Source: a virus (taxonomy: Duplodnaviria; Caudoviricetes). Taken from it: a stretch of 64,000 bases of DNA. The notes under the pieces are model-generated. The model was not told where the DNA came from. It ran no database searches and worked only from the letters and a program-made list of their open reading frames with translations. Shown piece after piece: positions 3 through 8,970 of this stretch; the stretch's first letter is position 1; each line of letters starts with the position of its first letter. Location: the IMG/VR virus record IMGVR_UViG_3300033463_000045, positions 1-64,000 of that record, one strand, 5' to 3'. Position numbers and translations under genes: made by a program.

Positions 3-728
3 ATAGTAAATGCAGGAACTGCATTAAAGAATGCTTATTTCTATATAGTATCTGCAGCAGGAACTACATTAGCAGAAAAACAAGATGCAACTTCTAATTA
101 TATTCCATCTGATAAAGGTGTTATGTATATTCCAGATAGTTGTACAATGGGTGATGCAACAATTACTGTTCCATTTGAAATTGCTGCACTATATGCGTGG
201 GCAACTACTTATAATGTAAATAGATATTATGCTCCAGCCGGAGTTAAGAGAGGCGTATTAAATTTAGTATCTAATGTTATAAATAATTTAACTGACTTAG
301 ATGCTGAAGTAATCTATAATGCTGATGTTCCAGCAAACCCAGTTAAATATCTAACTAATTATGGATTTACTATATATGGACAAAAGACTATGGATGCTTC
401 TCAAGTATTTACAAATAGAATTAATGTAAGTAACTTAGTTAATTATATTAAAATTCAAGGTAATATTATATTACAACCATATCTATTTGAATATACACCA
501 GTTAGTACTTTCCAAAAAGTATATATGGATTTAGATAAATTATTATCTGGTTTAGCAACTCAAGAAGTATTATATGATGATTATCAAATAGTTTGTGATA
601 TATCAAATAATACCGTTGAAACATTAGCAAATCATGAATTACATGCTGCTATCGCTATTAGACCTATTAATGTAACTGAATATATCTATTTAGATTTAAC
701 TGTTACTGATAAGTTAGGAGGAGAATAA
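3..728 (+). CDS. Contractile tail sheath protein, C-terminal part (5'-truncated by the window edge)
   Basis: The frame is open from nt 3, upstream of the ATG at 123. Sheath C-terminal motifs: YAPAG..RG, NPV..GFTIYGQKT, RINVSNL, YLFE, CDISNNT, IRPINVTEYI. Directly precedes the tube gene. Confidence 0.9.
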   Translation: MVNAGTALKNAYFYIVSAAGTTLAEKQDATSNYIPSDKGVMYIPDSCTMGDATITVPFEIAALYAWATTYNVNRYYAPAGVKRGVLNLVSNVINNLTDLDAEVIYNADVPANPVKYLTNYGFTIYGQKTMDASQVFTNRINVSNLVNYIKIQGNIILQPYLFEYTPVSTFQKVYMDLDKLLSGLATQEVLYDDYQIVCDISNNTVETLANHELHAAIAIRPINVTEYIYLDLTVTDKLGGE

Positions 729-729
729 T

Positions 730-1344
730 ATGGAGAAGAGATTACCATTAAATATTCAATTATTTGCTGATACTCAATTAATGCCTTTAAGTGATGAAAA
801 CATTACACCAGTATTAACTCCAGACTTTTTCAATACAGATGATTATCAATTACAATTACAAGAAAACTTTATAGTAATATTTGAAAGTAAAGATGGATTT
901 GATGGTTTTGAATTACTTGCTGCAAGTGTTACACTTCCTACTCGTAGTTATGAAGCACTTCAAGTAAATTATGCAAATAAAACTATAAATGTTGCTGGTC
1001 GTGTATCATTTAGTAATATGTCAATTGTAGTTAGAGATGTTATTAGTAAAGACACTGAATTACAACTTACTAAATGGGCTGAATCTATCCTATCTGTAAA
1101 GAAAGGTACTAGAGGAAGTATTGAAAAATACAAAGTTAATGTTGAAGTTATTCCACTAAGTCCAAATGGAGATAAAGGAAGACCTTCTATTGCTAGAGGT
1201 TGTTTCCCTGTAAGTATTAACTGGGGTGATTTAAGTTATGATAACACTGGAATCAGAACTTTAAATATTGAACTTGCAGTCGATGACTTTGCTCGTAAAG
1301 AAGTATGGACTGGCGCTGTAGACCAATCAAGCTTTGAAAGATAA
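730..1344 (+). CDS. Tail tube protein (T4 gp19-like) with N-terminal LNIQLF|A extension
   Basis: Follows the sheath gene. SVTLP...AGRVSF, GCFPVSINWGDLSYD tube-like pattern. A terminator follows. Confidence 0.85.
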   Translation: MEKRLPLNIQLFADTQLMPLSDENITPVLTPDFFNTDDYQLQLQENFIVIFESKDGFDGFELLAASVTLPTRSYEALQVNYANKTINVAGRVSFSNMSIVVRDVISKDTELQLTKWAESILSVKKGTRGSIEKYKVNVEVIPLSPNGDKGRPSIARGCFPVSINWGDLSYDNTGIRTLNIELAVDDFARKEVWTGAVDQSSFER

Positions 1345-1356
1345 TTAGAATATTAT

Positions 1357-1389
1357 AAAAAGAACTATTAATTTAGTTCTTTTTATTTT
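1357..1389 (+). terminator. Intrinsic terminator
   Basis: AAAAAGAACTA-TTAATT-TAGTTCTTTTT hairpin plus U-tract. Confidence 0.8.
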
Positions 1390-1400
1390 GCTTTAATAAT

Positions 1401-1416
1401 TTCATAATATATAATA
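1401..1416 (+). promoter_or_regulatory. Phage-specific promoter-like motif TTCATAATATATAATA
   Basis: The same 16-mer recurs just upstream of SD sites across the window (see findings). Confidence 0.7.
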
Positions 1417-1482
1417 AGAGGTGGTATTAAATGAATTGATACCAAAAACATAATTATATAATAGAAGGAGAGAAAATATATT

Positions 1483-2799
1483 ATGAATATAATTATTGAA
1501 GGACCTGATGCAACAGGTAAAACAACTTTAGCTGAAAAGCTACAAAAGAAATATGGAATGGGTTATTTACATAGCACTTCTAAAACACCTAATGATTTAA
1601 AATATCATATGGACTTATTAGATAAAGATAATATGGTATATGATAGATTTATGTGTGGTGAATTAGTATACCCAGAAATATATGGTAGAGAACCAAAAAT
1701 GAATATCGATGAAATCTTACAAGTTATGCAAAAGATTGTAGATAATAATGATATTTTAATTATTATGTATGCATCTAATTTAGATACTTTAAAAGAAAGA
1801 TTAGTTGCTAGAGGAGAAATAGATTATCTAAAAGAAATTGAACAACAAAATATTTTATTTCAAAAAGTTATTTATGTTTTAGATGCTTATGAATATAAAC
1901 ATTTCTTAGCTGTCGATGTAAGTAAAGCAGAAAATTATGATAAATTAGATAGCTATATTGATAGAGTATTTAATCAAAAAACAGTAAATATTCAATATAG
2001 ACAAGCATGTAGAGATTTATTAGAAAAAGGACATGAAGTAGAAAGTCCAAACGCATCTAGAGGTAATTCATTAGAATTAAATAATTATATGTTTACTGTA
2101 GATGACATTGAAGATAATGTTGTTACTTTAAAAACTAGAGATACTTCATTAACTTATTTAGCCGCAGAATTATTATGGTATTGGCAAAGTAGAAATGATG
2201 TTGACTTTATAGGTAAATTTGCTAAATTATGGAAAAGAATATCTGATGATGGTAAAACAAGTAATTCTGCTTATGGTTATTTATTACAAGAAAAACATGG
2301 ATTTAATCAAATAGAAACTATAATTGATTTATTACAAAAAGACCCATCATCTAGAAGAGCCGTATTAAATTTAAATGTTCCTAATCCTAATGTAGCAACT
2401 ACTAAAGATGAAATTTGCACTATTTGCTTAAATTATTTTATTAGAGATGGAAAATTACATTGTACAGGAATGATGAGAAGTAATGATATTATATTCGGTT
2501 TGACTTATGATATTACTTATTTTACTCAATTACAAAAATATATTGCTAGAAGATTAAATATTCCTACTGGAAGTTATACTCATTTTGCAACTTCAATTCA
2601 TGGTTATGATAAAGACTTTGATAAAATAAGAGATATTGCTAATGGAGATTTAACAACTATAGATAAAAGATTAGATATAGATTGGTTATTAACAGAAAAG
2701 AATATGAAAAAATTAACTGATTATGTAGATAATGAATTTGTATCTAAAGAAGATTTTACTGAACAATGTCAAACATTAGGAGTTATTAGAAGAAGATAA
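1483..2799 (+). CDS. Fusion of dNMP kinase (N-term) and thymidylate-synthase-family dCMP hydroxymethylase (T4 gp42-like)
   Basis: P-loop GPDATGKTT and DR motif at the N-terminus. C-terminal NSAYG, catalytic C in ICT, and RSNDIIFGLTYD with Asp at the position that is Asn in dUMP-specific TS. Confidence 0.85.
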   Translation: MNIIIEGPDATGKTTLAEKLQKKYGMGYLHSTSKTPNDLKYHMDLLDKDNMVYDRFMCGELVYPEIYGREPKMNIDEILQVMQKIVDNNDILIIMYASNLDTLKERLVARGEIDYLKEIEQQNILFQKVIYVLDAYEYKHFLAVDVSKAENYDKLDSYIDRVFNQKTVNIQYRQACRDLLEKGHEVESPNASRGNSLELNNYMFTVDDIEDNVVTLKTRDTSLTYLAAELLWYWQSRNDVDFIGKFAKLWKRISDDGKTSNSAYGYLLQEKHGFNQIETIIDLLQKDPSSRRAVLNLNVPNPNVATTKDEICTICLNYFIRDGKLHCTGMMRSNDIIFGLTYDITYFTQLQKYIARRLNIPTGSYTHFATSIHGYDKDFDKIRDIANGDLTTIDKRLDIDWLLTEKNMKKLTDYVDNEFVSKEDFTEQCQTLGVIRRR

Positions 2800-2800
2800 T

Positions 2801-3931
2801 ATGAAAGTAGCAGTAATTAAATTAGGAAGTAGAATAGCAATATCTTCTAGAGGAACTTCAGGAGGAACTGGAGAAGCATTATCAATTATAAAAATGTTGA
2901 CAAATGCAAAAGTTGATGTAGATGTATATACTGAAATATTATCTAAAGATGAGATTAATGATTTAGATTTTAATATTTATAATATTGAAGATACATATAA
3001 AGATATAAATAATAAAGATTATAATGCTTTAATAGTATTAAATGGAAATGTTAATTATTTTGGAGGAGTTGATTCTCCTTCTCAAACATTAAATTATTAT
3101 ATAATTAATAATTTTAAAGGAAAAATATTCTATATTTTATGTGATTGTAATTTATTATTAAAACAAGTATGGAAATCTATTGAAAATAAAGATTGGGTAA
3201 ATAATTATAAAAAAGATGATATAAATATTACTAGAAATGATATAATTTATATATCTCAACCTAGAGATATAAGCAAATTAAAAAACAAGCTCTCTAAGCT
3301 AGATATTATAATAGATGATATAATTCATTACCCATTTGAAAAGTTTCCTCTGGTGACATCAGAATACCTCCAGATTAATCCTAAATATGAATATGACATA
3401 TCATATGGCGGAACATTTAGAGGAGGTAAAAGAGAGAAAGATATGGTTAAATTTTACTTTGACTATCCAGAAGATATTAAAGTAGAAATGTTTGGAAAAA
3501 TAACGGAATCTAATTTTAATAAAGATTTAATAAAAGATTTAAGATTACCTATATTTAATAAAGCAGTTCCATATAATGAATTTAATAATAAAATGTCTAA
3601 TTCATTAGCAACAATAATAATTGGAGACCCATTATATAAGCAATTAGATGACTTAGCTCAAAGAATATATGAATCTATATTAGTAGGAAATATAGTATTT
3701 ATAGATAGTAGTTATGATTATAATAAAAGAGTATTTAAAAATGAAGAATTAATTAAATTTAATTATGTATCTAATAAAGAAGAAGTTATAGATAGAATAA
3801 GATTATTAAAAGAAAATGAAGAATTAAGAAATCATATAATAGAATTACAAAGACAAGATACTGAAATAGATATTAATAAATATTGTAATGATTTTGTTAA
3901 TATAATAAAGGAGAAAATAAATTATGAATAA
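2801..3931 (+). CDS. bgt: DNA beta-glucosyltransferase homologue (T4 BGT family)
   Basis: Collinear matches to T4 BGT: NGNVNYFGG (NSSINFFGG), YGGTFRGGKREKDMVKF (YGGSFRSGQRESKMVEF), IIIGDPLY (LIIGDKNY), RIYE, FID..D, E.IDRI.LLK. Confidence 0.88.
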   Translation: MKVAVIKLGSRIAISSRGTSGGTGEALSIIKMLTNAKVDVDVYTEILSKDEINDLDFNIYNIEDTYKDINNKDYNALIVLNGNVNYFGGVDSPSQTLNYYIINNFKGKIFYILCDCNLLLKQVWKSIENKDWVNNYKKDDINITRNDIIYISQPRDISKLKNKLSKLDIIIDDIIHYPFEKFPLVTSEYLQINPKYEYDISYGGTFRGGKREKDMVKFYFDYPEDIKVEMFGKITESNFNKDLIKDLRLPIFNKAVPYNEFNNKMSNSLATIIIGDPLYKQLDDLAQRIYESILVGNIVFIDSSYDYNKRVFKNEELIKFNYVSNKEEVIDRIRLLKENEELRNHIIELQRQDTEIDINKYCNDFVNIIKEKINYE

Positions 3932-4940
3932 AGGAAATATAACAATTTTATCAGGAGGTTCTGGTAATACAGCAATAATTAATGCAATATTACCAAATCC
4001 AGATATTAATTTACAAATAATAACAAATGCATATGATTCAGGAAAATCAACTGGAATATGCCGTAAAATAACAAATACATTAGGAGTATCAGATATTAGA
4101 AAAAATCATTTTAAAGTATATAAAAATTTACATAAAGATGATTTAGATAATAATTTAGTAGAATTTTATAAATCTAGATTAGATTTAACTAAAGGAAAAG
4201 AATTAGAAGAGGTAAAAGATTTCCTAGAAAAAAATAATTTATCTAATCTTATTAAATATGCAGAAAAATTCTTTGAAAGAGAAGAAGCAAATAAATATGA
4301 ATATAAAGATTTTAGCATAGCAAATATTATATATTCAGAGATGTATGCTGAAATTGGCTATAATATGACAAATGATTATTTTACTGATTTATTAAAAATA
4401 CCTAGCTGTGTTAAAATAAATTCATTTGATGATGCATATATAAATGCAATAACTTATAATGGTAATATTATTCCAGATGAAGGAGATATTGTTGAATATA
4501 AAAATTCTGAAGATAAAATAAAAGATATTTTATATACGAATGTTACTAAATCAAATGGTTTAAATCCAGAAGTTGTAGATATAATTAATAATTCTAATTA
4601 TATTATAATTTCTACTGGAACTTTCTGGTCTTCATTATACCCTACATTACATTATTTAGATTTTTATAAATTAATTAATAATTCTAATGCAAAGAAAATT
4701 TGGATTATTAATACTGAAGAAGATAAAGATTCTTATGGTGTAAGTAGTAATATGTTTATAGATAGATTAGAAGAATTAGGATTAGATTTATCTAACTTTA
4801 TTATAGTAGAAAATCTAGATGCAATTGATTCATTAAAAGAAAAGAATGAAAAACATAATATATTATATAAACATTTAGGAAATATAAATGGTTTAAATGA
4901 ATCAGATTTATTAAAAGAGTTATTTAGTGAAATAGAATAA
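3924..4940 (+). CDS. CofD/YvcK (UPF0052) family protein
   Basis: LSGGSG, NAYDSGKSTG..GVSDIR, GTFWSSLYP motifs typical of CofD-like/YvcK proteins. Confidence 0.75.
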   Translation: MNKGNITILSGGSGNTAIINAILPNPDINLQIITNAYDSGKSTGICRKITNTLGVSDIRKNHFKVYKNLHKDDLDNNLVEFYKSRLDLTKGKELEEVKDFLEKNNLSNLIKYAEKFFEREEANKYEYKDFSIANIIYSEMYAEIGYNMTNDYFTDLLKIPSCVKINSFDDAYINAITYNGNIIPDEGDIVEYKNSEDKIKDILYTNVTKSNGLNPEVVDIINNSNYIIISTGTFWSSLYPTLHYLDFYKLINNSNAKKIWIINTEEDKDSYGVSSNMFIDRLEELGLDLSNFIIVENLDAIDSLKEKNEKHNILYKHLGNINGLNESDLLKELFSEIE

Positions 4941-4953
4941 GAGGTAATTATAT

Positions 4954-6288
4954 ATGATTAATTTATATGATTTTGATGATACATTATGGAGTAGAAATCC
5001 AGATGAGATAGAAAAATCTATTGAAAATATTAAATTACTAAATGAATTACCTGATACTTATATTGTGTCAGGTAATTCATATCAACATATTAAAGAAAAA
5101 ATCGAGTTGGCTTTAGGAGATATAAATAATTGTAATATAAATATAATTGCGGATGCTAACACTAATTTATATAAAAATAATAAAATTATTTCAAGTATAA
5201 AAAATATGTCTATAACTAATTATGAAGAGATAATTAAAAAAATTGAAAAATTAGGTTATAAAAATAAAATGACAATATTATATAATATTAATAATGAACC
5301 TATAAATATAAAAATAAAACCTTTAGATAACGATGAAAGAGATTATTTATATTATGAATTAAATGATAATATAAATAAAGTAGTTAAAGCAGGTAAAACA
5401 ACAATTGATATATTAAATATTAATAATAACAAAATAAATATTTTTAATTCTTTTAATATAGATAGAAATAACTGCATTTATTTTGGTGATGAAATTAAAT
5501 ATGGTAATGATAAAGATATTGCATTATTATGTAAAGAATATATTGAAATAGATTCTATATATAAAATGAATAAAATATTAAATAGAGGAAAATTAATTTA
5601 TGGTTTAATAATTGCTGCCGGAAATCAAACAAGATTTAAAACAGATATTCCTAAAGCAATTATGCCTATAAATAATACAACATTATTAGATATAAATATA
5701 AAATCAATGTCAAACTATACAGATAAAATATATGTGGTTTGCTCATATAATAATAAAGATTATTTTGATAATTATAATACAATTATAATAAATTCAGGTA
5801 AAGGTTGTGGAGATGCTATTTTAAAAGCATTAGATTATTTATCTGATAATAATGATTGTTATATTAAATGGGGAGATTCATTACATTTAGACGATATTTA
5901 TAATAGAATGAATATAAATAATAAAATGGTAATTCCTGTTAGATATGAAGAAAATCCATATGTTCAAATAATAGCAAATGAAAATAATAAAATAGAGAAA
6001 ATATTATTTTCTAAATATGGAGAAAATATAACTGATGGTTATCATGATTTAAGTTTATTTTATGCAAATATTGGTTATTTAAAATATTATTTAAAAGAAT
6101 TTGCTAATAAAATATTAGATAAAGAAACAAATTCATATATTCATAAGCATAATAATGAATTACAATTCTTAGATGTTTTTAATGAAACTGAAATAGAATG
6201 CTATATTGATATATTAAATGGAATAAATGATTATTCATTTAATACGTTAGAAGAATTTAATAAGTTATTTAATGAACAAACAAAATAA
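4954..6288 (+). CDS. Fusion of HAD-IIB phosphatase/phosphomutase and NTP-sugar nucleotidyltransferase
   Basis: N-term DFDDT, SGN, GKTTIDI, FGDE..GNDKDI (PMM/Cof-like). C-term IIAAGNQTRFKTDIPKA, GCGDAI, WGD (GlmU/MobA-like). Confidence 0.78.
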   Translation: MINLYDFDDTLWSRNPDEIEKSIENIKLLNELPDTYIVSGNSYQHIKEKIELALGDINNCNINIIADANTNLYKNNKIISSIKNMSITNYEEIIKKIEKLGYKNKMTILYNINNEPINIKIKPLDNDERDYLYYELNDNINKVVKAGKTTIDILNINNNKINIFNSFNIDRNNCIYFGDEIKYGNDKDIALLCKEYIEIDSIYKMNKILNRGKLIYGLIIAAGNQTRFKTDIPKAIMPINNTTLLDINIKSMSNYTDKIYVVCSYNNKDYFDNYNTIIINSGKGCGDAILKALDYLSDNNDCYIKWGDSLHLDDIYNRMNINNKMVIPVRYEENPYVQIIANENNKIEKILFSKYGENITDGYHDLSLFYANIGYLKYYLKEFANKILDKETNSYIHKHNNELQFLDVFNETEIECYIDILNGINDYSFNTLEEFNKLFNEQTK

Positions 6289-6290
6289 AT

Positions 6291-6306
6291 TTCATAATAT
6301 ATAATA
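6291..6306 (+). promoter_or_regulatory. Phage promoter-like motif copy
   Basis: TTCATAATATATAATA followed by GAAAGGA SD. Confidence 0.7.
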
Positions 6307-6320
6307 GAAAGGAAGATAAT

Positions 6321-6791
6321 ATGAAATATTTTATTGATTTTGAAGAACTAATTTATGCAAAAACAACTGAAGTTAAAAGTCCAATAAGAGGACATGAAAA
6401 CGATGCTGGTATTGATTTCTTTGTACCAGATAATTTTGAAAAAGTTACACTACTTCCAAATGAAGATATAAAAATTGATTCTGGAATAAGAGTTATAGTT
6501 CCTAATAATTGGGCATTTATATTTAAAGAAAAATCTGGAGTAGCAACAAATAGAAAATTAACTTGCGGAGCAGCCGTAATTGATTCTGGTTATAGAGGTA
6601 ATGTTCATTTTCATCTATTTAATAATGGAACAGAACCTCAAACAATTGAAGCTGGAGATAAAATAACTCAAGCATTAATTATTCCAGTGTCATTGTGTCA
6701 ACCTAAAGAAATATCTTTAGAAGAATATGAAAAAATGTATAATGATACATCTAGAGGTTCTAAAGGATTCGGTTCAACTGGTACAAAATAA
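6321..6791 (+). CDS. dut: Trimeric dUTPase
   Basis: AGIDF, KSG, VIDSGYRG, GDKITQ, RGSKGFGSTG motifs I-V. Confidence 0.93.
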   Translation: MKYFIDFEELIYAKTTEVKSPIRGHENDAGIDFFVPDNFEKVTLLPNEDIKIDSGIRVIVPNNWAFIFKEKSGVATNRKLTCGAAVIDSGYRGNVHFHLFNNGTEPQTIEAGDKITQALIIPVSLCQPKEISLEEYEKMYNDTSRGSKGFGSTGTK

Positions 6792-6810: not shown

Positions 6811-7197
6811 ATGGATTCAGAAAAAGTTTTTAATTATAATAAAGATATGGAATTTAAAATTTATATTAATTATATGCAATCTGGTGATAGTGAACCATAT
6901 ATATTTCGTGATATTTTAACAATTAATAATTTAGACTTTATAAGAAAATCACAATTAACTGGAGATTATAAAAATGATTTATATGTATATTATAAACAAG
7001 TAATGTCTAAAATTTATAGAAAATATGGAAAATTAAAACCTGGAAGTGAAGTTGCAATAGTAAATGATGAAGTATTATATGTAAATGATTTTAATCCATT
7101 TGAAAAACCATTTAGATATGAAAAAGATTTAGATAGTCCTGATAATCTTAATTATCTAGATGAAAGAAATAAACCTGGTGAATACTCTTTTATTTAG
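6811..7197 (+). CDS. Hypothetical protein
   Basis: ORF with AAGGAG SD; no recognised motif. Confidence 0.6.
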   Translation: MDSEKVFNYNKDMEFKIYINYMQSGDSEPYIFRDILTINNLDFIRKSQLTGDYKNDLYVYYKQVMSKIYRKYGKLKPGSEVAIVNDEVLYVNDFNPFEKPFRYEKDLDSPDNLNYLDERNKPGEYSFI

Positions 7198-7244
7198 ATA
7201 ATAAAAATATATTATAAAAATAAAACATTCACCAGAATGTCTCT

Positions 7245-7274
7245 AAATAGTCAATATTAATTATTGACTATTTT
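7245..7274 (+). terminator. Intrinsic terminator
   Basis: AAATAGTCAATA-TTAAT-TATTGACTATTTT. Confidence 0.7.
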
Positions 7275-7338
7275 AATTTAATTTATTAAAAATTTTCATT
7301 AATTATAGAAAGGAATTAGACAAATAAGGAGGTAATTT

Positions 7339-8970
7339 ATGTTAAATATTCAATTATATAATAGAACTAAAAATACTTCTGGTTACATAGATAAATATGG
7401 TATAATTCAACACGATTTAGATGCTTATTGGGTTACTACAGATTATATGCAAGTTACTCCAGAAAGCAAATGTACTTATAATGGTCTTAGTTTTGTAGAT
7501 GAAAATCAATATGGTGCATTTTATGATATAGACATGAATTTTATGTCAACATTTAATTTACAAGCAGAGGAAACAGAAATAACAATTCCTGATAATGTAT
7601 ATTATGTTAGATTTAGTTTATGTCGTCATACTAAAATGAACTTATTTAGTCAAGAATTAGAAGTAGGTTCAATAAATGAAATATCTGGTTCTAATGAAGC
7701 AGGAGATACATTTAGAAGAACTATTGGTTATATAGATGCTGATAATTTATCTGATATAATTCCAGGTAATAAATATACAATATCAACAACTTCTCCTGTA
7801 TATCAAATGGTATTATATTATTATCGTAAAGCTCATGATGAATCTATTATTTATAATTCTTATATGACAACTCCATTTAATGAAGAAATAGATGAATGCA
7901 CTTTTACAGTTCCTAATATAGAAAACCTTTATGGAATAAGAGCAAAATTTTATAATCCAGAAGGTATTGATTTTAATGTAATGTTAAATTCAGGAGAAAA
8001 TTCATTACCTTATGTTCAATATACAGAAACAAATAATGATGATACAACTACATTTAATTTTTATATCTGGGCAGAAGCTTACACTGGATTTAGAGATGAG
8101 TTATATCATTGGATGAAGGAAACATTATCACCAAATTTAACTGAAGGTGATTTAGATATTATAGTTAAATTAATGTGTTATATATTTGGTGATTTATCTG
8201 GTTTAGTATATAATTTAAAAGCACAAATAGACCCAGATAAAGCAGAAGAAATATATTTAAGACATTTAGGTTCAAATATTGGTTATGAATGGAATAATGC
8301 ATTAACTGCAGAAGAACAAAGAGAAGCAATTAAATTATATATTGATTTACAAAAGAAGAGAGGTACAGTATTTAGTTTACAAAACTTAATTGCTGTATTT
8401 GGACAAGATAGAGATAGTTATTATTCTACATCTGATTTAAGAGGAGTTAATATTATTGAAGGTGGAAAAGATGGAGAACCTGTTGGAACAGCAGATTCTA
8501 ATGGATTATATCCTGGAGATATAATGATAGAAATTCCTCAATATAGTAATATATTAATAGATGCAATAGATAATATAAGATTAATAGGAACAAGAATTAT
8601 ATTTACTTATGTAATATATTGTGGACCATTTGATTTATCTATTAATACAGATGCAGGACATGAATTAAATATGTTCTTTGACCCAGCATATTGGGGATAT
8701 GACCCTACAATAGAAGAATTTACATCTATTGTTGAAGATATGTATGGACAAGATTATACAATAGATAATATTAAAGATTGGCCAATTGTAAATACAAGAG
8801 TTAGTAATTGTCAAGCAAATACATGTTGTGTAGTTTATACTTCATATAAAGAACCATTTGAAAAAGGTTTTGTATGGCATGAAGCTGGAAATACTAATTA
8901 TCAAGGATTTATGATGGATGATGATACATTAAAAGAAGACGATTCAATGTATGGTTATGGTCATGAATAA
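7339..8970 (+). CDS. Baseplate wedge protein with P2 gpI-like domain
   Basis: IDPDKAEEIYLRHLGSNIGY..QREAIK..KKRGT pattern of the tail_P2_I / gp7-like domain. Confidence 0.7.
   Translation: MLNIQLYNRTKNTSGYIDKYGIIQHDLDAYWVTTDYMQVTPESKCTYNGLSFVDENQYGAFYDIDMNFMSTFNLQAEETEITIPDNVYYVRFSLCRHTKMNLFSQELEVGSINEISGSNEAGDTFRRTIGYIDADNLSDIIPGNKYTISTTSPVYQMVLYYYRKAHDESIIYNSYMTTPFNEEIDECTFTVPNIENLYGIRAKFYNPEGIDFNVMLNSGENSLPYVQYTETNNDDTTTFNFYIWAEAYTGFRDELYHWMKETLSPNLTEGDLDIIVKLMCYIFGDLSGLVYNLKAQIDPDKAEEIYLRHLGSNIGYEWNNALTAEEQREAIKLYIDLQKKRGTVFSLQNLIAVFGQDRDSYYSTSDLRGVNIIEGGKDGEPVGTADSNGLYPGDIMIEIPQYSNILIDAIDNIRLIGTRIIFTYVIYCGPFDLSINTDAGHELNMFFDPAYWGYDPTIEEFTSIVEDMYGQDYTIDNIKDWPIVNTRVSNCQANTCCVVYTSYKEPFEKGFVWHEAGNTNYQGFMMDDDTLKEDDSMYGYGHE

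Follow-up and report, generated by a model that had tools for sequence, protein, structure and literature searches.

A phage operon that joins a predicted hydroxymethylcytosine glycosylation pathway to a portable cassette of CofD/YvcK-fold, HAD and nucleotidyltransferase domains

The operon and its hydroxymethylcytosine core

The phage genome (Duplodnaviria; Caudoviricetes) held in IMG/VR as record IMGVR_UViG_3300033463_000045 is complete, with 112,265 bp, direct terminal repeats and 25% G+C, and almost all of its genes lie on a single strand. The window analyzed here is the first 64 kb of this record (positions 1 to 64,000). Near its left end, five open reading frames (ORFs) were confirmed on the plus strand, at 1483-2799, 2801-3931, 3924-4940, 4954-6288 and 6321-6791, with intergenic gaps of +1, -8 (an overlap), +13 and +32 nucleotides (nt), in gene order. 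They encode, respectively, a kinase fused to a thymidylate synthase (TS)-family enzyme, a homologue of the T4 beta-glucosyltransferase (BGT), a CofD-like protein, a HAD domain fused to a nucleotidyltransferase (NTase), and a dUTPase. This tightly coupled five-gene operon with its domains, which had been recognized in a sequence-only reading of the same DNA, was borne out by the coordinates, by Pfam and PHROG matches, by sequence profiles and by structure models. The CofD-like, HAD and NTase components together are referred to below as the cassette.

The first protein begins with a P-loop dNMP kinase domain (amino acids (aa) 1-160; 1483-1962) that contains the motif GPDATGKT at 1501-1524 and matches the Pfam families Thymidylate_kin (6e-6) and AAA_18 (5e-6), both under the Pfam cut-offs, as well as a PHROG thymidylate kinase family (9e-15). 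By analogy with T4 gp1, we infer that this domain phosphorylates 5-hydroxymethyl-dCMP (hm-dCMP). The remainder of the protein (1963-2799) is a TS-family domain (Pfam Thymidylat_synt, 6e-27 over aa 171-384) with a dCMP hydroxymethylase signature, for which the best match in the PDB is the CMP (cytidylate) hydroxymethylase MilA (7.5e-27), followed by TS (1e-14) and T4 gp42 (1e-13). The protein is the T4 gp1/gp42 pair joined in one chain; at four of the other cassette loci described below (L005, L020, L022 and L023), the kinase is a separate ORF adjoining the TS or BGT gene.

When the domain is aligned with ThyA of E. coli and gp42 of T4, the TS core residues E58, W80, Y94, R126, R166, S167, H207 and Y209 and the catalytic Cys146 are invariant. 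The motif KDEIC (2404-2418) yields 143D and C146, and RSND..YD yields D169 and 177D; the final Asp of the latter motif, RSNDIIFGLTYD (aa 332-343; 2476-2511), aligns with N177 of ThyA and D179 of gp42, so that the dCMP-type Asp attributed earlier to the fusion protein is indeed present. In ThyA numbering, N177D is diagnostic of dCMP as the substrate, L143D/E of water access and hence a hydroxymethyl product, and D169N of 5-hydroxy-dCMP synthases (Lee et al., NAR 2026, PMC13326640). By every diagnostic residue checked, the TS domain is a T4-type dCMP hydroxymethylase, the product being predicted from these residues. The same C146, 143D, D169 and 177D are found in all nine (9/9) TS homologues that accompany a BGT and the cassette elsewhere.

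An alternative is that the enzyme makes 5-methyl-dCMP or 5-hydroxy-dCMP, in which case the glycosyltransferase (GT) would sugar another base or the pathway would be inactive. The specificity of this family has been surprising before, with RB69 gp48 making 5-hydroxy-dCMP (PMC13326640), and no dCTPase was found in the genome. However, D169N occurs in every tested 5-hydroxy-dCMP synthase and Leu143 in the methyl-forming enzymes (PMC13326640), whereas here D169 is kept, position 143 is Asp as in the T4-type hydroxymethylases, and the partner is a BGT homologue; accordingly, we consider a different TS product highly improbable. Specifically, a 5-hydroxy-dCMP synthase of the RB69 gp48 type was ruled out by the retained D169 (RSND).

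The second gene (2801-3931) encodes a DNA glycosyltransferase of the T4 BGT family that represents a distinct subfamily (Pfam T4-Gluco-transf, PF09198, 2.4e-20, 73 bits against a cut-off of 27; PHROG beta-glucosyltransferase, 8e-54). It is 27% identical to T4 BGT and retains E22, D100, R191, R195, R269 and E272. The identities of these residues were checked in the T4 sequence, and we take D100 and E22 to be catalytic and R191, R195, R269 and E272 to bind the nucleotide. To our knowledge, the only established substrate of the BGT family is 5-hydroxymethylcytosine (hmC) in DNA. The BGTs linked to the cassette come from very different phages and share 46-72% identity among themselves; with T4 BGT they share 24-32%, and they consistently differ from it by S189T, I238V and M240Y, at positions that presumably lie near the donor site. 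A BGT homologue is present in 122 of 50,697 phage records, and identity to the BGT of this phage exceeds 31% in only two of these (48% and 47%). These are precisely the two records in which a tblastn search of the phage records detected the CofD-like gene, those of the Ralstonia jumbo phage RsoM2USA and the 462-kb huge phage LR756500.1; the gene is found in none of the remaining 120 BGT-bearing records (0/120). The linked BGT subfamily and the cassette are strictly co-inherited.

The last gene of the operon (6321-6791) encodes a classical trimeric dUTPase with an intact motif V (RGSKGFGSTG; Pfam, 4e-17; PDB dUTPases, 1.5e-17). We ruled out that it is a gp56-like dCTPase, given that it has no similarity to T4 gp56. 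A dCMP deaminase is encoded elsewhere in the genome, at genome position 96710-97087.

In the resulting scheme, the TS-family domain would turn dCMP into hm-dCMP, the fused kinase would phosphorylate the latter, a host kinase and the phage polymerase would place hmC in DNA, and, once the DNA is replicated, the BGT-family enzyme would glycosylate the hydroxymethyl group with an NDP-sugar (nucleoside diphosphate sugar) as the donor. That hmC is made at the nucleotide level and then glycosylated by the BGT-family enzyme is, in our estimate, very likely, because of the diagnostic TS residues, the best match to MilA, the retained BGT residues and the dCMP deaminase in the genome. The T4-like logic of the sequence-only reading (dCMP hydroxymethylase, dNMP kinase and BGT) held on every diagnostic residue checked. 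Shared with the T4 hmC pathway are the TS-family enzyme (143D, C146, 177D), the dNMP kinase, the BGT homologue with D100 and the UDP-binding arginines, the dCMP deaminase and the dUTPase. Unlike in T4, the kinase and the hydroxymethylase are fused, the BGT belongs to a separate subfamily (27% identity), no gp56-type dCTPase was found, and three extra enzyme domains, which T4-like phages lack, are encoded 3' of the BGT gene.

The cassette: domains, partners and distribution

The third gene (3924-4940) encodes a CofD/YvcK-fold protein with the motifs SGGSGN, NAYDSGKSTGICR, LGVSDIRKN and STGTFWSSLYPTL, a candidate phosphotransferase acting on an NDP-linked donor. It matches Pfam CofD above the threshold (PF01933, 5.6e-17, 62 bits against a cut-off of 30) and scores 53 bits against the NCBIfam YvcK family TIGR01826, for which the cut-off is 196. 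Its structure model, with a predicted local distance difference test score (pLDDT) of 94.6, is matched by Foldseek to YvcK/UPF0052 structures (TM-score 0.74-0.81, E ~1e-15; 0.74/0.80 for 2hzb), with lower scores for CofD 3c3d (TM 0.62/0.67, E 4e-7) and FbiA (TM 0.54-0.60). A profile search against the PDB gave 1e-13 for YvcK and E 0.04, over only 30 residues, for CofD 3c3d. In the family of this protein, 55 residues are invariant across 49 homologues, and the invariant Tyr37-Asp38 occupies the place of the catalytic Asp-Asp of GlmR. Judging from sequence profiles and the model, the CofD-like protein is a separate subfamily nearer to YvcK/GlmR than to true CofD. The fold to which it had been assigned at the outset, that of the CofD/YvcK family, was confirmed; what has to be revised is the place within that family, which is closer to YvcK/GlmR and distinguished by Tyr-Asp instead of Asp-Asp.

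The likeness to YvcK/GlmR (UPF0052) comprises the nearest structures and profiles, the Gly-rich N-terminal, D-x-G-x-S-[ST]-G..R and GD.R motifs, and the link to NDP-sugar metabolism. Unlike YvcK/GlmR, the gene lacks the yvcJ-glmR-whiA context, and the members of its family usually occur as fusions with a mutase, GT or NTase. The phage and bacterial copies are 50-60% identical. In a database clustered at 90% identity, 505 relatives were detected at E<1e-5, mostly CofD+HAD fusions of ~570 aa, among which none is informatively named, and an exhaustive search of clusters at 50% identity yielded 98 at E<1e-30, 344 at 1e-10 and 860 at 1e-3. No PHROG family matched either the CofD-like or the HAD-NTase protein.

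The fourth gene (4954-6288) starts with a HAD-IIB domain of the phosphomannomutase (PMM)/alpha-phosphoglucomutase (alpha-PGM) type (4954-5589; DFDDT at 4969-4983 and GDEIKYGND within 5482-5517). This half of the protein has no match in Pfam or PHROG; nevertheless, the HAD motifs I-IV are present (DFDDT, of the DxDxT form, SGN, and GDE..GND), along with a PMM-type cap motif and a long-spaced motif IV. Sequence profiles matched the PMM 7myv end to end (3.6e-7), 2i54, 2amy and 3f9r, the atypical alpha-PGM 4bnd, and ISN1 5'-nucleotidases, and Cof-type sugar phosphatases are absent from these profile matches. Over residues 1-213, the model of the fusion protein (pLDDT 90.2) matches HAD-IIB folds with a C2B cap (Z 15.5-16.8); the scores of Cof-type hydrolases are just as high when structure is the only criterion. 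The HAD domain is a candidate mutase of the PMM/alpha-PGM type, as predicted from the profile matches. A role as a product phosphatase working with a synthase, as in TPS/TPP, MpgS/MpgP or the phosphatase domain of the Bcs3 polymerase of Haemophilus influenzae type b (Hib), is not favored, the profile matches being mutases. The HAD half shares 35-39% identity with the corresponding domain of CofD-HAD fusions; evidently, one and the same domain, which most genomes attach to CofD, is here joined to the NTase.

The NTase domain (5590-6288; IAAGNQTRFKTDIPKAI at 5611-5661) is of the GlmU/RmlA/LicC type, with a Pfam NTP_transf_3 match (1e-7 at aa 217-312) and a signature of the G-x-G-x-R..PK type (AAGNQTRF..PKA). 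Structurally, residues 213-444 are closest to GlmU pyrophosphorylase domains (Z 23), then to PntC, IPCT, GalU, LicC and RmlA, with MobA lower; Foldseek gave 1e-13 to GlmU, LicC and RmlA. From sequence and models, it seems most likely that the mutase and the NTase produce a dedicated NDP-hexose, via hexose-6-phosphate, hexose-1-phosphate and NDP-hexose. The suggestion of a phosphomutase followed by a pyrophosphorylase, made from the sequence alone, fits these results, with PMMs and alpha-PGM being the closest solved HAD relatives by profile and the NTase being GlmU/RmlA-like.

In a related phage of 120 kb (JGI 3300028833; L005:9935-9950), the HAD-NTase gene carries a one-base insertion, TGG-C-GGA-GAT compared to TGG-GGA-GAT (window 5869-5877), that puts NTase residues 307-438 in the +1 frame. 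The truncated product of 310/313 aa is recorded from 22 contigs and thus does not stem from a single assembly error. The gene could be a pseudogene or be split, or the frame break could be bypassed by programmed frameshifting.

We fetched ~45 cassette loci from phage records, IMG/VR, metagenome contigs and metagenome-assembled genomes (MAGs). In nearly all of these, the NTase adjoins or is fused to the CofD(-HAD) gene, and the architectures include CofD-HAD, HAD-NTase, CofD-HAD-NTase (~770-810 aa; for example, proteins P0241, P0270, P0276 and P0297), GT2-CofD-HAD (~1010 aa), CofD-GT2 (~650 aa) and NTase-CofD-GT2 (966 aa) fusions. In the ESM Atlas, a 773-aa cluster assigned to Nucleocytoviricota contains CofD in 98% of its members and NTP_transf_3 in 13%. 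The cassette is widespread: it occurs in phages of the gut and rumen, in jumbo and huge phages, in gut Bacillota and, in the fused form, in this giant-virus cluster, and in phages it is tightly bound to DNA glycosyltransferases of two unrelated families.

A GT is located beside the cassette, or fused to it, in most loci, and the GT family differs. A BGT, the cassette and a TS homologue occur together in ten phage loci from unrelated lineages, among them LR756500.1 and RsoM2USA, a recurrence that argues against a chance grouping. In another set of phages, the cassette is located beside TET/5mYOX-associated glycosyltransferase (TAGT) genes, with TAGT on both sides at locus L011. Like the TAGT systems, the phage described here would glycosylate DNA after replication, and the same cassette is flanked by TAGT genes in several IMG/VR phages; unlike them, it is predicted to make hmC at the nucleotide level and to use a BGT-family GT. 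The published work on phage TET/TAGT systems makes no mention of an NTase, mutase or CofD-like gene. At L011 (L011:8679-13284; IMG/VR 3300036951), the two TAGT genes flank a CofD-HAD gene and an NTase gene, and no TET was seen in this contig, which is ~20% complete. A search for TET in the TAGT-type contigs (13-84% complete) gave no match and is uninformative, given that the control search matched nothing either.

In MAGs of gut Bacillota that carry housekeeping genes, the cassette lies beside EpsU/PgaC-like GT2 or GT8 genes. In a 426-kb Clostridia MAG contig (L003:10618-15741), the order is GT2/CofD-HAD/NTase, then a Na/Pi cotransporter, then pgk-tpi-pgm; in this single case, a phosphate importer next to the cassette would be in keeping with a polymer rich in phosphate. 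These bacterial loci bring up the possibility that the cassette has a target other than DNA, namely, a host surface glycan or teichoic acid-like polymer, with a role in receptor masking or superinfection exclusion, or else virion proteins, and merely resides beside the hmC genes. The association of the bacterial cassettes with GT2 or GT8 and with a flippase or an ABC-transporter fusion is compatible with this possibility, as is the fused form in the giant-virus cluster. Giant viruses glycosylate their particles. However, the cassette is positioned directly 3' of the BGT-family gene in ten phage loci, with a start/stop overlap in this phage, the linked BGT subfamily was never seen without the cassette, and the phage operon includes no membrane GT or export gene; therefore, a target other than DNA appears unlikely for the phage cassette.

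No GT was identified in a phage group with Vut_1 and short-chain dehydrogenase genes or at locus L021. In this group, exemplified by L007:3233-11610 and by the context of P0022 (a 410 kb contig), the cassette occurs with Vut_1 (queuosine-precursor transporter family), a GDSL lipase, a short-chain dehydrogenase and conserved ORFs of ~297, 376 and 395 aa that match no family, and there is no TS or BGT. The 376-aa ORF, which lies 3' of the cassette, was considered as a BGT and rejected as it does not align.

A tree of the CofD domain, built with a quick search method only, consists of two deep clades (100% by the Shimodaira-Hasegawa-like approximate likelihood ratio test), each with BGT-linked, TAGT-linked and MAG cassettes, and in one instance a BGT-linked and a TAGT-linked cassette form a sister pair (99%). 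A common clade of all BGT-linked cassettes is rejected by the approximately unbiased test (delta lnL 254, p ~1e-49). The cassette is a portable, mobile module that is specific neither to hmC nor to DNA.

The cultured phage RsoM2USA holds the whole module, which makes the question of cassette function testable. Its linear record (MG752970.1) is cut within the module: the first two genes, ORF2 (BGT) and ORF1 (CofD-HAD), occupy 29-3020, and the NTase-like ORF486, which matches the NTase of the window at 3.8e-17, is the last gene (343044-343793), all three on the same strand. The TS-like gene of RsoM2USA is ORF10. In the record, ORF1, ORF2 and ORF486 are hypothetical; the accompanying paper names ORF2 a beta-glucosyltransferase, likewise gives the cassette genes as hypothetical and includes no analysis of DNA chemistry. 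Additionally, ORF477 of RsoM2USA is a PRA-PH/MazG-like NTP pyrophosphatase, a possible dCTPase without a counterpart in the phage of the window.

Candidate roles of the cassette

Our main hypothesis is that the CofD/YvcK-fold proteins of the cassette are a new class of hexose-1-phosphate (phosphoglycosyl) transferases that would attach a phosphodiester-linked sugar to glycosyl-hmC in hmC phages and contribute to sugar-phosphate glycans in gut Bacillota and giant viruses; this is a tentative proposal, with a probability of about 0.4. The HAD mutase would convert hexose-6-phosphate to hexose-1-phosphate, which the GlmU-like NTase would turn into a dedicated NDP-hexose, and the CofD/YvcK-fold enzyme would then move hexose-1-phosphate from the NDP-hexose to a hydroxyl, with the release of the nucleoside monophosphate (NMP). 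Either the sugar that the BGT installs or the hydroxyl of hmC itself would serve as the acceptor, the product would be glycosyl-hmC with a second, phosphodiester-linked sugar, and the same NDP-hexose may double as the BGT donor. In gut bacteria, the trio beside GT2 or GT8 would make a sugar/sugar-1-phosphate surface polymer.

Phosphoglycosyl transfer is suggested, first of all, by the near-universal pairing of the NTase with the CofD-like protein, which mirrors the NTase (CofC/FbiD) and CofD of F420 synthesis, where X-phosphate is activated as NDP-X and phospho-X is passed to a hydroxyl, with NMP released. In common with CofC/CofD (FbiD/FbiA), the cassette has an NTase beside a CofD-fold transferase, the Pfam CofD match over the threshold and the shared fold. 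In contrast, true CofD is distant (E 0.04; TM 0.62-0.67), the NTase is GlmU/RmlA-like and not specifically CofC/MobA-like, no other F420 gene is found among the annotated neighbors in the fetched loci, and the partners are glycosyltransferases. Further, because a dedicated GlmU-type NTase is always present, a GlmR-type uridylyltransferase role for the CofD-like protein would be redundant, and the Asp-Asp of GlmR is replaced by the invariant Tyr-Asp. The matches of the HAD domain to mutases also argue for phosphoglycosyl transfer, as do the fusions, which link every part of the cassette, with GT-CofD fusions fitting two transferases that act serially on one acceptor. Under this reading, every gene has a function in keeping with its family's chemistry.

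Bacillus phage SP-15, in which the base is glucosyl- and phosphoglucuronolactone-dihydroxypentyluracil, offers the only precedent found, with a sugar-1-phosphate on a base hydroxyl via a non-backbone phosphodiester, plus glucose (PMC5977210). Unlike hmC, the SP-15 base is uracil-derived, the enzymes proposed for it are TagF-like and similar, and tblastn detected a CofD-like gene in no phage record apart from those of RsoM2USA and LR756500.1.

Several observations weigh against phosphoglycosyl transfer onto DNA. By profile and structure, the CofD-like protein is nearer to YvcK/GlmR, known for UDP-GlcNAc binding and in-vitro uridylyl transfer. The cassette tree is decoupled from the GT partner and the acceptor class, with BGT-linked cassettes in both deep clades, which is easier to explain with a cassette acting solely on soluble metabolites. 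The single-chain CofD-HAD-NTase proteins, the giant-virus cluster included, resemble a soluble three-step pathway, and contact of the CofD-like enzyme with DNA is putative. The substitutions in the linked BGT subfamily hint that the BGT itself takes a special donor. Finally, neither a gp56-like ORF nor a match to MazG (PF03819) was found anywhere in the 112-kb genome, so that the replacement of cytosine may be incomplete.

Most of these observations fit a role of the cassette in donor supply, where the mutase and the NTase would make an NDP-hexose (maybe non-glucose, maybe non-UDP) for the BGT, and the CofD-like protein would be an accessory that either works as an auxiliary nucleotidyltransferase in the manner of GlmR or senses the product and activates the fused mutase; the end product would be plain glycosyl-hmC, new only if the sugar is new. 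The affinity of the CofD-like protein to YvcK/GlmR is relevant here, given that GlmR promotes UDP-GlcNAc synthesis (PMC10128056, PMC13046274). The cassette swaps freely among BGT, TAGT, GT2 and GT8, and among DNA and glycan contexts, as a donor module would, and the CofD-HAD-NTase single chains are in line with such a module. The strictly co-inherited BGT subfamily is altered at positions that we believe to be near the donor site. There is also a phage parallel: RB69 and DLP3 make an NDP-sugar for DNA glycosylation with a HAD phosphatase and an NTase-kinase (PMC13326640). The arabinosyl-5-hydroxycytosine systems of RB69, DLP3 and HY126 resemble the operon described here in having a phage-made nucleotide-sugar, and a HAD enzyme and an NTase beside a TS homologue and DNA glycosyltransferases. 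They differ in that a D169N synthase provides their base, 5-hydroxycytosine, in that their HAD enzyme acts as a phosphatase, with a kinase and an isomerase as the remaining enzymes of the NDP-arabinose pathway, and in that no CofD/YvcK-fold protein has been reported.

On the other hand, the mutase and the NTase would already suffice for donor supply, which leaves the CofD-like protein, with its 55 invariant residues, without a necessary step, and one of the two catalytic aspartates of GlmR is replaced family-wide. Fusions of CofD-GT2 and NTase-CofD-GT2 that lack the mutase oppose a role as mutase regulator, and the uridylyltransferase role of GlmR in vivo is disputed. Together, these two readings, which correspond to the alternatives of the sequence-only reading, account for most of the data, and we regard a role confined to donor supply as only slightly less probable than phosphoglycosyl transfer. 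A hybrid, with one NDP-hexose feeding both the BGT and the CofD-like enzyme, is possible as well.

The sequence-only reading held that either outcome, a phage-made NDP-sugar or a second phospho-linked group, would give an undescribed base. This went too far, because a cassette that makes only UDP-glucose would lead to ordinary glucosyl-hmC. If the cassette supplies the donor, it would be a new viral route to a virus's own sugar donors; if it catalyzes phosphoglycosyl transfer, the result would be a phosphate-bearing, negatively charged glycosyl-hmC, an undescribed base, and a new type of transferase. Under either reading, this would be the first biochemical role for a large YvcK-like subfamily. 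The searchable papers contain no description of CofD, 2-phospho-L-lactate transferase or YvcK in connection with phage DNA modification. The hmC/BGT core is known biology; the cassette, like its association with DNA glycosyltransferases, appears to be undescribed. Hypermodifications of phage DNA set which restriction, CRISPR and glycosylase defences can be evaded and are a source of enzymes for epigenomics.

Genome setting and control elements

The operon, which is dedicated to nucleotide and DNA modification, is embedded within the structural module, with tail sheath and tail tube genes 5' of it and a baseplate-like gene 3'. An AT-rich hairpin followed by a T-run was read from the sequence 3' of the tail-tube gene (1357-1389, plus strand) and is likely a terminator between the structural genes and the operon; it was not called by a consensus terminator scan, which demands G+C-rich stems. 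Next comes a promoter-like 12-mer, CATAATATATAA (1403-1414, plus strand), 69 nt 5' of the first ATG of the operon, and a second exact copy (6293-6304, plus strand) directly precedes the dUTPase gene, which qualifies the view of a single operon. Exact copies of this 12-mer number nine in the window (at 1403, 6293, 30063, 34325, 40150, 41131, 45285, 50425 and 61212), all on the plus strand and most of them 20-80 nt 5' of start codons; with one mismatch allowed, there are 17 occurrences, not clearly more than in shuffled sequences (mean 10.6). From its placement, this motif is probably a phage promoter element.

Downstream of the dUTPase gene, a 128-aa ORF (6811-7197, plus strand) has no match in Pfam, PHROG or NCBIfam, lacks homologues at the loci searched from IMG/VR, phage records and contigs, and is probably outside the pathway. 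The host may belong to Bacillota, as suggested by the 25% GC and by the closest cellular cassette homologues, which are from Bacillota MAGs.

In this genome, the inserted operon is flanked by the tail-tube gene on one side and the baseplate-like gene on the other (window 1344-1483 and 7197-7339). In the relative GCA_016852305.1 (~55% identity), the same five genes are located between the genes for dCMP deaminase and DNA polymerase A, and these different flanks indicate that the operon moved as a block.

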